Sequence record: PP993145.1
Origin: Escherichia phage phiP4
Reading direction: 5' to 3' (one strand)
DNA length: 64,000 nucleotides
The position numbers were made by a program, and so were the translations under genes. Shown here piece by piece: positions 20,548 through 32,210 of this stretch (within the stretch, counting starts at the first letter, position 1; the number at the start of each line of letters is the position of its first letter). Under the pieces are notes generated by a model. It was not told the DNA's origin. It made no database searches and saw only the letters and a program-made list of their open reading frames with translations.

Positions 20548-20634
20548 TGGTGCTGGGCACAGGATTCGAACCTGCAGTGGGATTACTCCTCCTGATTACA
20601 AATCAGGTGCATTCAACCATTCTGCCAACCCAGC
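20548..20634 (-). tRNA. tRNA with long variable arm; anticodon loop TTTGTAA, formally anticodon TGT (Thr)
   Basis: Hand fold: 7-bp acceptor, CCA, 3-bp D-stem, 15-nt variable arm; identity ambiguous. Confidence 0.5.
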
Positions 20635-21037: not shown

Positions 21038-21113
21038 TGGAGCGGCTAGAGGGAATCGAACCCTACTCAGCGAGGCTTGGAAGGCCTGCGACACAACCCG
21101 TGTGCTTAACCGC
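21038..21113 (-). tRNA. tRNA-Gly (anticodon TCC)
   Basis: Hand fold: acceptor GCGGTTA/TAGCCGC, anticodon loop CTTCCAA, CCA. Confidence 0.6.
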
Positions 21114-21121
21114 TTATTATT

Positions 21122-21817: not shown

Positions 21818-22186
21818 AATTGAAAACTCGCAGGGTTAGCGAAACCTTCCTCAATTAGCATGTTCTAGAATACTAATCAAGTTATCTCCTATTGCACGCA
21901 GCTCAAGACGAGTACGAATTTTCAATTGTGGCGGCTCTCAGAAACTCTTCTACTCTAGCTTTAGCAGCTTACTCCCGAACGCATGTCGGGGAAGTCTTAC
22001 CAAGAGCATCAAATAGCACCGTTACACTTTGAGCCATAGATGTATCAAGAAGCAGAAGGATTTGAACCTTCACGAGATAGACCAGTTATCTCAGCCGCTT
22101 TATGAGGTATGTTGCAGGGAGTGGATGTTCCCTATAAACCTTTTAGGCAGCCCCGTCTACCGATTCCGGCATACTTCAAGAATTTT

Positions 22187-22360
22187 TTATAAACCAGCAG
22201 AAGCCTCATTTAAAGCATCAACAATAGCTTCACGTTGGGTCATTCCATACCCGGTGGAATCTAGGTGTGGCAAATAAGCCATCCATCCCTTATCTGTTTC
22301 ATGAAGACATGCTTTAAATTTTTTACCATCCTTCATTGTTACAGTAACTGTTTTGCTCAT
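22187..22360 (-). CDS. small protein (57 aa) with HicB-like antitoxin fold signature
   Basis: Hand-translated MSKTVTVTMKDGKKFKACLHETDKGWMAYLPHLDSTGYGMTQREAIVDALNEASAGL; AAGGAA-type RBS. Confidence 0.4.
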   Translation of the reverse strand: MSKTVTVTMKDGKKFKACLHETDKGWMAYLPHLDSTGYGMTQREAIVDALNEASAGL

Positions 22361-22380
22361 AAGATTTCCTTATAGTTAAT

Positions 22381-22470
22381 TGGCAGAAGATAATGGAGTC
22401 GAACCATCACCGTATCGCTACAGCGGGCTGGTTTTCAAGACCAGTTACGTACCACTACGTCCTATCTTCT
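22381..22470 (-). tRNA. tRNA-Ser (anticodon TGA)
   Basis: Hand fold: class II, long variable arm, anticodon loop CTTGAAA, CCA. Confidence 0.65.
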
Positions 22471-22483
22471 AGTATTTATTATA

Positions 22484-22831
22484 CTAATAGTCACTCGTAC
22501 TAGTGAAGTTTTCTACTTTTCCACAGATTTTACAAGTCCTACGATGATAGTAGGTAATTTTTACTTTAGACCAGCCATCGTGATCATTACCTAGGTTTTC
22601 TGTTACTCCCCAAGTATGAGAACACTCATTTTCAATTTGCTTAGTAAGAGCGTTATAGCGAGTATAAAACTCCTCCTGAGCAATAGCAAATTCTTTCTGT
22701 AGTTTATCACGAGCAATAATAGCACGTTCCAGATATGTTAAATCAGGCATTCCAGCTTTTTCAGCAACATCTATAATCTTATCTTCATCTAAAGATGCTA
22801 AAAACTCTAGAGCTTTATCTTTTGTTAGCAT
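22484..22831 (-). CDS. hypothetical protein (115 aa)
   Basis: ORF track. Confidence 0.5.
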   Translation of the reverse strand: MLTKDKALEFLASLDEDKIIDVAEKAGMPDLTYLERAIIARDKLQKEFAIAQEEFYTRYNALTKQIENECSHTWGVTENLGNDHDGWSKVKITYYHRRTCKICGKVENFTSTSDY

Positions 22832-22850
22832 TATTATTACCTCAAGTGTT

Positions 22851-22941
22851 TGGCGGAAGAGGAGAGATTTGAACTCTCAAGCCGTTTTACCAGTCAGCCA
22901 CTTTCCAAGCGGTTTTCGTCACCAATTCGATTTGCTCTTCC
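22851..22941 (-). tRNA. tRNA-Ser (anticodon GGA)
   Basis: Hand fold: class II, long variable arm, anticodon loop TTGGAAA, CCA. Confidence 0.6.
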
Positions 22942-22974
22942 AATAATAAGATGATGCCTCTATCACACCAGGCA

Positions 22975-23053
22975 GTTACGCCTCGCTGGGATTCGAACCC
23001 ATTAAAACAGCTCAACCGAGATAGTAGGTTTAATTTACTCTGACCATCAAATT
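22975..23053 (-). pseudogene. tRNA-like remnant: T-arm (GGGTTCGAATCCC) with 3-prime acceptor half but no pairing 5-prime half
   Basis: The 13-mer GGGATTCGAACCC is duplicated 79 nt apart; no complementary acceptor strand found. Confidence 0.3.
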
Positions 23054-23130
23054 TGGTGCGTGACAAGGGATTCGAACCCTCAAAACCCGACTTCTAAGGA
23101 CGGTATGTATGCCAATTCCATCAATCACGC
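23054..23130 (-). tRNA. tRNA with Leu-type anticodon TAG but class I (short variable loop) architecture
   Basis: Hand fold: 7-bp acceptor GCGTGAT/GTCACGC, discriminator A, CCA, anticodon loop CTTAGAA, 5-nt variable loop. Confidence 0.5.
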
Positions 23131-23135
23131 ATATT

Positions 23136-23214
23136 TGGTGGAGAATAACGGAATCGAACCGTTCTGATGTCCTCGGTGCAAGCGAGGTGTCCACTCCATG
23201 CAGACCCATTCCCC
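23136..23214 (-). tRNA. tRNA-Ala (anticodon TGC)
   Basis: Hand fold: acceptor with G3:U70 pair, anticodon loop CTTGCAC, CCA. Confidence 0.65.
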
Positions 23215-23452
23215 AAATTCTTTAGTTTACTAAGGCTATTAGCTCGGCGTAACTACAGCACCTTCGCTTCGAGCGGAAGGAACTGCGTCATCTCGCAAAC
23301 CCAATACACTATTCAGTTGCCGCTGAATCTAGTGGACCAATCTAGAACTTCTCCCGAATCAGGGGGATCGTGCTTTTTGGCAGCCAGTCCTAGGTCGAGC
23401 TAATACCTTAGTGAACTATGATGAGGATTTCTCCTCATCAATTTATATAAAT

Positions 23453-23481
23453 ATTATAACAAGAAATTAAGCATCAAGCAA
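23453..23481 (-). promoter_or_regulatory. sigma70-type early promoter (TTGCTT-N17-TATAAT) upstream of a tRNA sub-cluster
   Basis: Hexamers and spacer read directly. Confidence 0.6.
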
Positions 23482-23500
23482 CTGCGTTTTTTCTTGAAAT

Positions 23501-23579
23501 TGGTAGATCGCCTGGGACTCGAACCCAGAACCTTCCGATTAAAAGTCGGATGCTACTAAACCTATTGAGCTAGCGATCT
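23501..23579 (-). tRNA. tRNA-Lys (anticodon TTT)
   Basis: Hand fold: perfect acceptor AGATCGC/GCGATCT, anticodon loop CTTTTAA, CCA. Confidence 0.7.
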
Positions 23580-23580
23580 A

Positions 23581-23748
23581 TTAGTAACCATTATACACTT
23601 CTTTAATAGAGTGGACTTTTAAGTAAGGGTGATTAGTACTAAACTCTACCATTACTTCATCCCAATTTTTACCATAATGAGCAAGTAAGGATTTTGATGT
23701 ATTCTTACCTAATCGTTTATCACTTACTACTAATCGAAATACTTTCAT
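23581..23748 (-). CDS. small hypothetical protein (about 55 aa, below track threshold)
   Basis: Hand-translated ORF between tRNA-Lys and the next tRNA. Confidence 0.35.
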   Translation of the reverse strand: MKVFRLVVSDKRLGKNTSKSLLAHYGKNWDEVMVEFSTNHPYLKVHSIKEVYNGY

Positions 23749-23768
23749 TTCGAAATCCTCTATTAAAA

Positions 23769-23846
23769 TGGAAGCGGGTGCAGGAATCGAACCTACCTCT
23801 TTCTAGCTTATGAGACTAGCGATCTCTACCAGAGATCTAACCCGCG
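23769..23846 (-). tRNA. tRNA with anticodon CAT (Met, initiator-like or Ile2)
   Basis: Hand fold: anticodon loop CTCATAA; position 1:72 unpaired (C/U), as in initiator tRNAs; CCA. Confidence 0.55.
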
Positions 23847-23852
23847 ATTATT

Positions 23853-23929
23853 TGGTCAGTGCGGCAGGACTCGAACCTGCGACCCGAAGCATCCAAGGCT
23901 CCCACGCTACCAACTGCGCTACGCACTGT
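23853..23929 (-). tRNA. tRNA-Pro (anticodon TGG)
   Basis: Hand fold: perfect acceptor CAGTGCG/CGCACTG, anticodon loop CTTGGAT, CCA. Confidence 0.7.
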
Positions 23930-24138
23930 TAATTTTTGTTAACTCACTTTATAAGATATATTATACAGAGAATTAAGCAGAATAGCAAATGAATTTTTAA
24001 TAAATTTACTTATTGTGTAGGCCACCTAGAGGCTATGAACCCCACGGCTGACAAAGAAGTTTGCGAGACTTCTCTTAAATGCCAGAATAGACCCGCCGAT
24101 CTATCGGAACCTACATAATAAGTAAACTTTATAGTGTC

Positions 24139-24258
24139 ATTCTAGACAGGACTCGAACCTGTTATCACTTGTGCGGACTTACGAGAACCATTCTTTCACT
24201 CGAATCGAACGAGCTTCTGCCCTCGCCAAGCTGGTTTCCCCATCAACCACGCTAGAAT
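24139..24258 (-). other. composite tRNA-like element (120 nt) with two T-arm hairpins and a D-arm-like hairpin
   Basis: Outer 7-bp acceptor-like pairing ATTCTAG/CTAGAAT spans 120 nt; no canonical anticodon arm found by hand. Confidence 0.3.
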
Positions 24259-24380
24259 GTTTGATTGTTTTCAGTGCAAGAGTCCGAGTCTTGGACACGA
24301 CCGCTTCGCAAGTACATAGGCAGCTTATCATGAGTCAGCACTTCCGAATTGCTAGCTCCGTGTTCTGCACTGAAATTTTA

Positions 24381-24728
24381 TTAGTTTAACCGTAAAGTAT
24401 TATCTACTTCACCATTAATTGTTCGGCATTCTTCTGGGATTGCCGGGGTAGCCTTATATTCCCACCACTCAGCACCATCATATTCCCCACGTTCTAACCA
24501 AGTTCCATCGGCAAACCATACATTACCATAAAGTAATTGTCCACCGTATCCAGAATCATATTCAAAGTCTAGGTTATTAAGAAAATCCTCAATATCTTCT
24601 TCTGTATAACCTAAAGGTAATACCCAAACTTTTTTATCCCCATAATACCCGAATTCTATTTTAATACACTTAACTTCAGAATTAGTATTTTTTAAGGCAA
24701 GTAACAACTCTTCTTTAGCATTACGCAT
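24381..24728 (-). CDS. hypothetical protein (115 aa)
   Basis: ORF track. Confidence 0.5.
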   Translation of the reverse strand: MRNAKEELLLALKNTNSEVKCIKIEFGYYGDKKVWVLPLGYTEEDIEDFLNNLDFEYDSGYGGQLLYGNVWFADGTWLERGEYDGAEWWEYKATPAIPEECRTINGEVDNTLRLN

Positions 24729-25127: not shown

Positions 25128-25210
25128 TGGCGGGCCGTGTAGGATTCGAACCTACGTTGTCTTTCGACATGGATTAACAGTCCACCGCCAAACCGCTTGG
25201 CTAACGACCC
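25128..25210 (-). tRNA. tRNA with 13-nt variable arm and anticodon GTT (Asn as read; Tyr-like architecture)
   Basis: Hand fold: acceptor GGGTCGT/ACGGCCC, 3-bp D-stem, anticodon loop CTGTTAA, CCA. Confidence 0.5.
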
Positions 25211-27287: not shown

Positions 27288-27364
27288 TGGTAGGGGTGGT
27301 GGGATTCGAACCCACAAAACCTGAATTTTAAGTCCAGTACCTATGCCAATTCGATTACACCCCC
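27288..27364 (-). tRNA. tRNA with Leu-type anticodon TAA but class I (short variable loop) architecture
   Basis: Hand fold: acceptor GGGGGTG/CACCCCT with G1-U72, discriminator A, CCA, anticodon loop CTTAAAA. Confidence 0.5.
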
Positions 27365-27867: not shown

Positions 27868-27945
27868 TGGTGGCTCCCCGAGGATTCGAACCTACGTACC
27901 TTCCGGTTATGAGCCGGGTGCTCATACCATATGAGCTTGAGAACC
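27868..27945 (-). tRNA. tRNA with anticodon CAT (third CAT tRNA; Met or Ile2), imperfect T-stem
   Basis: Hand fold: acceptor GGTTCTC/GGGAGCC, D-arm GCTC/GAGC, anticodon loop CTCATAA, CCA. Confidence 0.5.
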
Positions 27946-32138: not shown

Positions 32139-32210
32139 TACCGACCGTAGGATTCGAACCTACATCTTCCACCAGTTACGGCTTGATAATACCAATTATA
32201 CTAGGACGGC
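32139..32210 (-). other. tRNA-like element with acceptor and perfect T-arm but no recognisable anticodon arm
   Basis: T-arm GTAGG-TTCGAAT-CCTAC; acceptor 6/7 paired; no CCA. Confidence 0.3.

Follow-up and report, generated by a model that had tools for sequence, protein, structure and literature searches.

A tRNA-Leu(UAG) without the long variable arm in the T5-like phage phiP4 carries the published elements of Escherichia coli leucine identity

Introduction

The leucine tRNAs of bacteria are normally class II molecules with a long variable arm, as an initial annotation of the DNA studied here rightly stated, and a 2023 review of tRNA identity describes tRNA-Leu as long-armed outside animal mitochondria (PMC9976931). 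Armless (type I) tRNA-Leu is already known from animal mitochondria, from Streptomyces and among engineered Escherichia coli variants. Here we describe a gene of this kind in Escherichia phage phiP4 (sequence record PP993145.1), a tRNA-Leu(UAG) whose variable loop is 5 nucleotides (nt) long. It lies in a stretch of 64,000 nt, hereafter the window, which belongs to a T5-like phage (Demerecviridae) and whose region 22000-24500 is 95-98% identical to the Escherichia phages Stokescottia, BUCT632, chee24 and others.

In E. coli, leucine identity depends crucially on the discriminator base A73, while neither the anticodon nor the long arm is required (Giegé and Eriani, PMC9976931). Systematic evolution of ligands by exponential enrichment (SELEX) singled out A15-U48, G18G19 and A20a, and the pairs G18:U55, G19:C56 and U54:A58 also count (PMC9976931). 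Variants of tRNA-Leu lacking both arms are still active, and engineered E. coli tRNA-Leu from which the arm was deleted (Asahara et al., 1998; Larkin et al., 2002) is still a substrate of the leucyl-tRNA synthetase (LeuRS) if A73 and the tertiary pairs between the D and T arms are intact (PMC9976931). The phage tRNA-Leu looks like a natural version of these laboratory constructs.

Among natural examples, the type I tRNA-Leu of Streptomyces coexists with class II leucine tRNAs and a single LeuRS; a special LSD of ScoLeuRS is credited with the charging of its tRNA-Leu(CAA), and this type I tRNA is presented as a rare exception in need of a special LeuRS (PMC6614811). The phage gene has in common with the type I tRNA-Leu of Actinomycetota (S. 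coelicolor CAA; Fan et al., 2019) the 5-nt variable loop, a Leu anticodon and A73, but the actinobacterial D region is UAGCCCAAUUGGCAGAGGCA, with A9 and C13, whereas that of the window gene is UGAUGGAAUUGGCAUACAUA, with G9 and G13 as in E. coli. The animal mitochondrial tRNA-Leu(UUR/CUN) also lack the long arm and have an identity set of A73 and A14; they combine a degenerate core with a dedicated mitochondrial LeuRS, whereas in the phage tRNA both the elbow and the T-loop are fully canonical. No paper on a phage family of armless tRNA-Leu, or on its E. coli-type core, was found in the literature searched.

Results

The tRNA-Leu(UAG) gene and its fold

The gene (Table 1) is called tRNA-Leu(tag) by ARAGORN and scores 47.5 bits (E=1e-7) against the Rfam model RF00005, above the gathering score of 29. 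From the acceptor stem to the anticodon stem the RNA reads GCGUGAU-UG-AUGG-AAUUGGCAU-ACAU-A-CCGUC, and from the anticodon loop to the 3' end CUUAGAA-GUCGG-GUUUU-GAGGG-UUCGAAU-CCCUU-GUCACGC-A-CCA. The acceptor stem GCGUGAU/GUCACGC is made of U7·G66 and six Watson-Crick pairs, the T arm is GAGGG-UUCGAAU-CCCUU, and the molecule retains every universal tRNA position as well as its CCA end. The initial annotation had reported a clean acceptor stem, T-arm and CCA, the Leu-type anticodon UAG in the loop CTTAGAA, a 5-nt variable loop in place of the long arm, a discriminator A as in tRNA-Leu and a second copy, all of which agree with the sequence and, for the anticodon, with ARAGORN as well. It did not mention two features, namely a D-stem of 3 base pairs (bp) with G13·A22 unpaired and an anticodon stem interrupted by the mismatch U30·U40. 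The anticodon loop is identical across all the enterobacterial-phage orthologues that were fetched.

When the sequence is folded alone, a non-cloverleaf structure (-22.3 kcal/mol) is favoured over the cloverleaf (-18.4 kcal/mol); the minimum free energy (MFE) folds are more stable than the cloverleaf by 3.8-3.9 kcal/mol, and their z-scores are modest, at -1.2 to -1.4. An MFE that misses the cloverleaf is common for unmodified tRNA sequences, and, the MFE being uninformative for tRNA, the fold was assessed by comparative analysis instead. To this end, 128 distinct armless Leu sequences of 74 nt were aligned, comprising the two window copies, the fetched orthologues (Epseptimavirus S124, Seunavirus NINP13076, five Felixounavirus and two Avunavirus records) and the matches of a pattern scan of IMG/VR (at least 120 loci). 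The scan pattern fixed AATTGG, the loop CTTARAA and a short spacing, and ARAGORN favours cloverleaves.

The cloverleaf pairs 94.4% of the cells of this alignment versus 61% in shuffles, with 98-99% pairing per helix, and double-sided changes occur at 20 of the 20 stem pairs. The covariation score is 0.913, whereas sliding the partners gives no more than 0.19, and RNAalifold returns the same cloverleaf, with a 3-bp D-stem, a 7-nt anticodon loop and a 5-nt variable loop. These compensatory changes are not a product of the selection by pattern or by ARAGORN. The pair 13:22 is formed in 1.6% of the relatives, A15:U48 is present in 127 of them (A15 being fixed by the search pattern, U48 not) and A73, a position left free in the pattern, in all 128. 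The initial annotation had considered that a better fold might display a different anticodon; no such fold finds support, RNAalifold and covariation both giving the cloverleaf.

A leucine-type core with only the arm gone

The initial annotation had described the gene as having a class I body. The short variable loop is of this type, but the rest of the molecule is not that of a generic class I tRNA. A class II tRNA is recognized by a variable region of at least 10 nt forming a hairpin arm, where the phage tRNA has 5 nt, and by a 3-bp D-stem in which 13:22 is not a Watson-Crick pair, which the phage tRNA has in the form of G13·A22. In positions 8-26, the E. coli leucine tRNAs leuW (UAG, UGGCGAAAUUGGUAGACGCA), leuZ (UAA, UGGUGGAAUCGGUAGACACA) and leuT (CAG, UGGCGGAAUUGGUAGACGCG) can be set beside the UAG copy (UGAUGGAAUUGGCAUACAUA) and the UAA copy (UAAUCGAAUUGGCAUAGGUA) of the window. 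All five have a 20-nt D region, a 3-bp stem, a purine-purine 13·22, A14 and A15, and G18G19 with four loop nucleotides before and three after, among which A20a. The likeness to the three E. coli tRNAs thus extends over A73, U8 and G9 (the latter two in the UAG copy), the D region with its unpaired R13·A22, the run A14, A15, U16, U17, G18, G19, N20 and A20a, the closing U48 and the Leu anticodons. Class I tRNAs in E. coli follow the pattern UAGCUCAGUUGGUAGAGCA and have a D-stem of 4 bp and G15:C48. The differences from E. coli tRNA-Leu are found in the variable region (5 nt in the phage versus a hairpin arm of 13-15 nt), in the T-loop (UUCGAAU versus UUCAAGU) and in the anticodon loop (CUUAGAA with A37 versus UUUAGGU with G37 in leuW).

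For a quantitative comparison, 26 E. coli K-12 tRNAs covering all 20 isotypes were segmented by position, and a signature was defined as 13:22 unpaired, A15:U48, alpha=4, beta=3 and A73, alpha and beta being the numbers of nucleotides before and after G18G19. The signature is present in three of three E. coli tRNA-Leu and in none of the 23 other E. coli tRNAs; among 22 tRNAs of the window, it is carried by the two armless Leu tRNAs only. G18G19 in the Leu register (alpha=4, beta=3, A20a) together with an unpaired 13:22 occurs in no non-Leu E. coli isotype examined. In raw identity over the D region the E. coli tRNAs nearest to the UAG copy are those for Leu, but Arg(ACG) scores as high as two of these. 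Judged by the structural signature, tRNA-Leu(UAG) has the D-arm and core of a class II, Leu-type tRNA, and only the arm is missing.

Every element of the published E. coli LeuRS identity set is present in tRNA-Leu(UAG). U8, A14, A15 and U48 can be read in the sequence, which thereby carries U8:A14 and A15:U48, and at the level of sequence the elbow pairs G18:U55, G19:C56 and U54:A58 are possible, the T-loop UUCGAAU providing U54, U55, C56 and A58. A blastn search of the gene against 5,426 complete E. coli genomes gave no match, and no copy of the T5-group gene was found there.

CUA and UUA in the phage

CUA and UUA make up 20.2% and 23.1%, respectively, of the 932 Leu codons in 34 open reading frames (ORFs) of the window, while in E. 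coli nrdA, nrdB, thyA, nrdD and polA they account for 1.3% and 3.0%. The two phage tRNA-Leu therefore match exactly the two Leu codons that are overused by the AT-rich phage and are rare in its host. The meaning of these codons was examined by aligning five phage proteins (NrdA, NrdB, ThyA, NrdD and DNA polymerase) with the E. coli orthologues, in which a Leu stands opposite 27 of 50 CUA codons (54%) and 23 of 45 UUA codons (51%), as it does opposite 34 of 68 CUG (50%) and 13 of 20 UUG codons (65%). No sign of a reassignment of CUA or UUA was seen in this five-protein alignment, and both codons behave as Leu codons in the phage. The presence of all the published LeuRS elements and this behaviour of the codons together bear on the initial annotation's view that identity and charging enzyme were unclear: the missing arm that prompted the doubt is real, while the identity now points to leucine.

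A role as nonsense suppressor was also considered and rejected, UAG and UAA being here the anticodons that pair with CUA and UUA and not with stop codons; neither of the two armless tRNA-Leu has the anticodon CUA, UUA or UCA.

A class II counterpart in the same slot of T5

In T5 (NC_005859) the order of the genes is that of the window (Lys, RNA2H, Ala, Leu, Ser(GGA), Ser(UGA)), and the Ala-Leu pair of the window is syntenic with the tRNA-Ala and tRNA-Leu of T5. The flanks of the Leu gene are 85-86% identical between the two phages, and the alignment extends into the 5' half of the gene itself. However, the T5 tRNA-Leu(UAG) (T5t10, NC_005859 31624-31708) is an 85-nt class II tRNA with a 13-nt variable arm, as opposed to 77 nt and 5 nt in the window. 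The two genes share the anticodon UAG, the slot directly downstream of tRNA-Ala(UGC), 14 of 20 positions in the D-arm, the CUUAGA loop and A37. The armless tRNA-Leu(UAG) and a class II tRNA-Leu(UAG) thus occupy one and the same slot interchangeably, the latter in T5. According to the T5 record, replacement of the anticodon turns the T5 tRNA-Leu into an amber suppressor (NC_005859), which fits a charging that is independent of the anticodon. No tRNA-Leu(UAA) was found in the 24-42 kb tRNA region of T5 that was examined.

Among phage records, about 163 carry the armless UAG form (at least 90% identity) versus about 55 with the long-arm form of T5. In some phages, namely Lindwurm, fp01 and HK6, the long-arm UAG gene is accompanied by a partial match of 81.8% (query positions 10-64), which probably corresponds to the armless UAA gene.

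Distribution of armless tRNA-Leu

The armless tRNA-Leu(UAG) is found in three unrelated groups of enterobacterial phages, Demerecviridae, Ounavirinae and Vequintavirinae. IMG/VR contains at least 167 armless Leu tRNAs, of which at least 153 are distinct; among the IMG/VR matches listed, all complete genes have A73 and the anticodons are UAG, UAA, CAA, GAG and AAG. In the loci of these matches, tRNA-Ser is long-armed in 106 of 106 cases and tRNA-Tyr in 46 of 47, while 167 tRNA-Leu have the short loop and 42 the long arm; a Ser tRNA kept long beside a short Leu tRNA fits an arm that is needed by the seryl-tRNA synthetase (SerRS) and not by LeuRS.

In bacterial genomes, a single-copy chromosomal armless tRNA-Leu(UAA) is present, among the matches listed, in many Actinomycetota (including Nocardia, Mycobacterium, Gordonia, Rhodococcus, Arthrobacter and Rothia), and further armless Leu genes, again among the matches listed, lie in arrays of 10-31 tRNA genes in cyanobacteria, Acidobacteriota, Verrucomicrobiota and others. 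Hundreds of GenBank records already list the Leu genes of the window as tRNA-Leu, and at least one pipeline calls them tRNA-OTHER.

The twin gene, the neighbours and the array

The features are collected in Table 1. The tRNA array of the window is on the minus strand, from about 19.5 to 32.2 kb, and comprises 22 tRNAs called by ARAGORN together with some extra Rfam tRNA matches. The twin armless tRNA-Leu(UAA) has the same D-loop (AAUUGGCAU), the same variable loop (GUUUU) and a T-loop identical to that of the UAG copy, as well as A73, and is found at 95% identity or more in 325 phage records.

Table 1. Features of the phiP4 tRNA-Leu(UAG) locus and of the surrounding array, in window coordinates.
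Feature	Position	Strand	Evidence
tRNA-Leu(UAG), 77 nt including encoded CCA, 5-nt variable loop	23054-23130	minus	ARAGORN, Rfam RF00005, covariation in 128 relatives
Anticodon UAG in the 7-nt loop CUUAGAA (23098-23092)	23094-23096	minus	Sequence
Positions 8-26, UGAUGGAAUUGGCAUACAU, Leu-type D-arm	23105-23123	minus	Architecture as in E. coli leuW, leuZ, leuT
Variable loop GUUUU; last base U48 partners A15 (Levitt pair)	23082-23086	minus	Sequence
Discriminator A73 (23057) and encoded CCA (23056-23054)	23054-23057	minus	Sequence
Twin armless tRNA-Leu(UAA)	27288-27364	minus	ARAGORN tRNA-Leu(taa); Rfam 57.4 bits
tRNA-Ala(UGC), 5 nt upstream of tRNA-Leu(UAG)	23136-23214	minus	ARAGORN; T5 annotation; flank homology 85%
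tRNA-Ser(GGA)-like sequence	22847-22941	minus	
tRNA 3'-half-like remnant	22960-23040	minus	
tRNA-Thr(UGU)	20548-20634	minus	
tRNA-Asn(GUU)	25128-25210	minus	
tRNA-like	27871-27945	minus	Rfam only, 40.3 bits
tRNA-like	32139-32210	minus	Rfam only, 35.5 bits
tRNA-like	21041-21114	minus	Rfam only, 30.9 bits
tRNA-like	22047-22178	minus	Rfam only, 26.5 bits
Sigma-70-like site	23988-23960	minus	

The neighbouring tRNA-Ala(UGC) is unusual, with a length of 79 nt, G8 and G9 instead of U8, a 7-nt variable loop and a retained G3:U70; its best Rfam match reaches 23.6 bits only and is to the tRNA-Sec model. In T5, the tRNA-Ala(UGC) is a cleavage target of a bacterial Schlafen nuclease (PMC13056530). On the other side of the Leu gene, the tRNA-Ser(GGA)-like sequence is about 70% identical to the T5 tRNA-Ser(GGA); in the window it received no ARAGORN call and no Rfam match (E<=1), whereas its S124 orthologue is called normally, and it may have decayed. 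Between this sequence and tRNA-Leu lies a remnant resembling the 3' half of a tRNA (..AUGGGUUCGAAUCCCAG..), in whose slot T5 has the HNH endonuclease gene hegC; in S124 an HNH endonuclease abuts tRNA-Leu.

The four elements matched by Rfam only are, to judge from their positions, probably the T5 tRNA-Ile2(CAU), tRNA-Gly and annotated tRNA-like stable RNAs. A sigma-70-like site lies upstream of the Pro-Met-Lys-Ala-Leu run, in a setting where the counts of such sites are no higher than in shuffles, and hints weakly that the run might be co-transcribed from it.

Two further tRNAs of the array depart from the usual forms. The 87-nt tRNA-Thr(UGU) has a 15-nt variable arm (GGA/UCC stem, GUAA loop), a 3-bp D-stem, G13·A22, a register like that of Ser and Tyr (alpha=3, beta=4), A73, G1-C72 and C2-G71; it joins a Thr anticodon to a class II body, the reverse of the situation in the armless Leu. 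The T5 tRNA-Thr(UGU) is 75 nt long, and the long-arm Thr form of the window occurs in about 99 phage records at 90% identity or more. The tRNA-Asn(GUU) is 83 nt long, with a 13-nt variable region (GUCGAAAGACAAC), and its T5 counterpart 78 nt.

Discussion

The tRNA-Leu(UAG) of phiP4 is most probably a functional leucine isoacceptor of the phage, a tRNA-Leu whose arm has been cut to 5 nt and whose Leu core has been kept. From the identity elements described above we infer, with good support, leucylation by the LeuRS of E. coli or Salmonella; the gene is presumably expressed. The window encodes no LeuRS-sized ORF besides those for NrdA, DNA polymerase and a helicase-like protein, and charging with leucine would be carried out by the host LeuRS. 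The E. coli enzyme recognizes A73 and the geometry of the elbow and core (U8:A14, A15:U48, the position of G18G19, A20a, G18:U55, G19:C56, U54:A58) but neither the anticodon nor the long arm. The charged tRNA would then decode CUA, and probably further CUN codons through wobble at U34, while its tRNA-Leu(UAA) twin would decode UUA and UUG.

A number of observations weigh against this assignment. In the work of Fan et al. (2019; PMC6614811), the type I tRNA-Leu(CAA) of Streptomyces was not a substrate for E. coli LeuRS, an enzyme described there as charging type II only. The variable loop of that tRNA ends in C48, so that A15:U48 is absent, and for this reason the failure of the E. coli enzyme is not directly transferable to the phage tRNA. 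In Aquifex, deletion of the arm mainly lowered affinity, and therefore the armless phage tRNA may be a weaker substrate of LeuRS than a long-arm tRNA-Leu. The literature yielded no experiments on this RNA, biochemical data included. In raw identity, the UAA twin is not closest to E. coli tRNA-Leu, and the frequencies drawn from IMG/VR and from the genome sets are biased because they were obtained by selection with the pattern and ARAGORN. Within the gene itself, U30·U40 (window 23091 and 23101, minus strand) leaves the anticodon stem with a mismatch, and position 37 is A where the CUN-reading tRNA-Leu of the host has G37 (1-methylguanosine, m1G).

As to these last two positions, U30·U40 also occurs in Seunavirus NINP13076 and Felixounavirus HY02; a U·U is found in 3 of the 128 relatives, and the others have G·U or Watson-Crick pairs at 30:40. 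A37 following G36 is common to both phage forms of tRNA-Leu(UAG), the armless one (CUUAGAA) and the long-arm one of T5 (CUUAGAU), and the phage loops also depart at positions 32 and 38 from E. coli leuW, whose loop UUUAGGU has G37. In CUN-reading tRNAs, G37 is the site of m1G37.

A tRNA with a Leu anticodon and no Leu arm might be charged by a synthetase other than LeuRS, with the result that CUA and UUA would be read partly or wholly as another amino acid. The missing arm was the source of the doubt in the initial annotation, one annotation pipeline calls these genes tRNA-OTHER, and precedents are available in yeast mitochondria, where CUN is read as Thr, and in Ashbya mitochondria, where CUU and CUA are read as Ala (PMC7609411). 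We nevertheless regard such recoding as extremely improbable. The anticodon loop has 7 nt, compared with 8 nt in the yeast mitochondrial tRNA-Thr(UAG); 3:70 is G:C in the phage tRNA, and the G:U that characterizes Ala, and by which the Ashbya mitochondrial tRNA-Ala(UAG) is judged, is found in 0 of the 128 relatives; there is no long arm for SerRS, and A35 and G36 are unsuited to the synthetases that read the anticodon (identity rules, PMC9976931). Moreover, CUA and UUA stand opposite Leu at the rate of CUG, and the gene at this locus in T5 is a tRNA-Leu(UAG) of the ordinary class II kind. No more credible is the view that the gene is a decaying, non-functional remnant of a class II tRNA-Leu left by a deletion. 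T5-like tRNA regions do hold decayed pieces, such as the 3'-half remnant and the Ser(GGA)-like sequence of the window, the annotation of T5 itself includes a tRNA pseudogene as well as tRNA-like stable RNAs, and the U·U mismatch could be taken in the same sense. However, 130 phage records are at least 99% identical to tRNA-Leu(UAG), compensatory changes maintain the fold in orthologues of 75-88% identity, the universal positions and the CCA end have been retained, and the UAA twin is likewise conserved.

If a functional leucine isoacceptor is accepted, the reason why its arm was lost is a separate matter, for which streamlining, host-range flexibility and evasion of a tRNA-targeting factor are candidates, the last of them speculative. 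Evasion would mean that the arm was lost, and the loop altered to C32, A37 and A38, as an escape from a factor that recognizes class II tRNAs or the host tRNA-Leu, be it a tRNase, a toxin or a modification enzyme, of the host or of a rival phage, and that the main role of the tRNA is to replace damaged host tRNA-Leu and not to supplement codons. Phage tRNAs, including those of T5, have been proposed or shown to counter tRNA-targeting defences (PMC10264068, PMC11464382, PMC12673091), and both host tRNAs and those of T5 are substrates of a bacterial Schlafen nuclease (PMC13056530), the human SLFN11 being specific for type II tRNAs according to a citation in the same paper. The spread of the armless form over three unrelated lineages of enterobacterial phages, its excess of about 3:1 over the long-arm form in T5-like phages and the departure of the anticodon loop from leuW at 32, 37 and 38 would also agree with such a role. 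On the other hand, for no known bacterial nuclease has recognition of tRNA-Leu by way of the long arm been demonstrated; the reported Schlafen targets are Lys, Met, Ala, Val, Phe and Ile, with no preference for Leu or type II tRNAs reported (PMC13056530); the strong CUA and UUA bias already accounts for both anticodons; and armless tRNA-Leu is a normal chromosomal gene of Actinomycetota, so that loss of the arm needs no defence rationale. We therefore consider evasion unlikely. The same low likelihood attaches to the idea that arm loss is adaptive, and not neutral streamlining, in the sense that the armless tRNA-Leu is a mobile cassette, passed between unrelated phages because it is chargeable by the host LeuRS and yet invisible to factors of the host or of rivals that recognize class II tRNAs or host tRNA-Leu; were it true, E. 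coli LeuRS would efficiently charge a natural type I tRNA-Leu.

The functional armless isoacceptor proposed here implies neither an altered genetic code nor a new mechanism. What it adds is that armless tRNA-Leu is common, being the majority form of tRNA-Leu(UAG) in T5-like phages and occurring also in phages like Felix O1 and rV5, and in this respect it corrects the textbook generalization on the long arm of tRNA-Leu. For annotation pipelines and isotype classifiers, it follows that armless Leu genes should not be labelled tRNA-OTHER or taken as signs of recoding. An armless tRNA-Leu in a coliphage, alongside the best-studied LeuRS, provides a natural test of the dispensability of the arm for bacterial leucine identity, and the pair formed by T5 and phiP4 is a natural swap between class II and class I at a single locus, in which the purpose of the arm can be asked.

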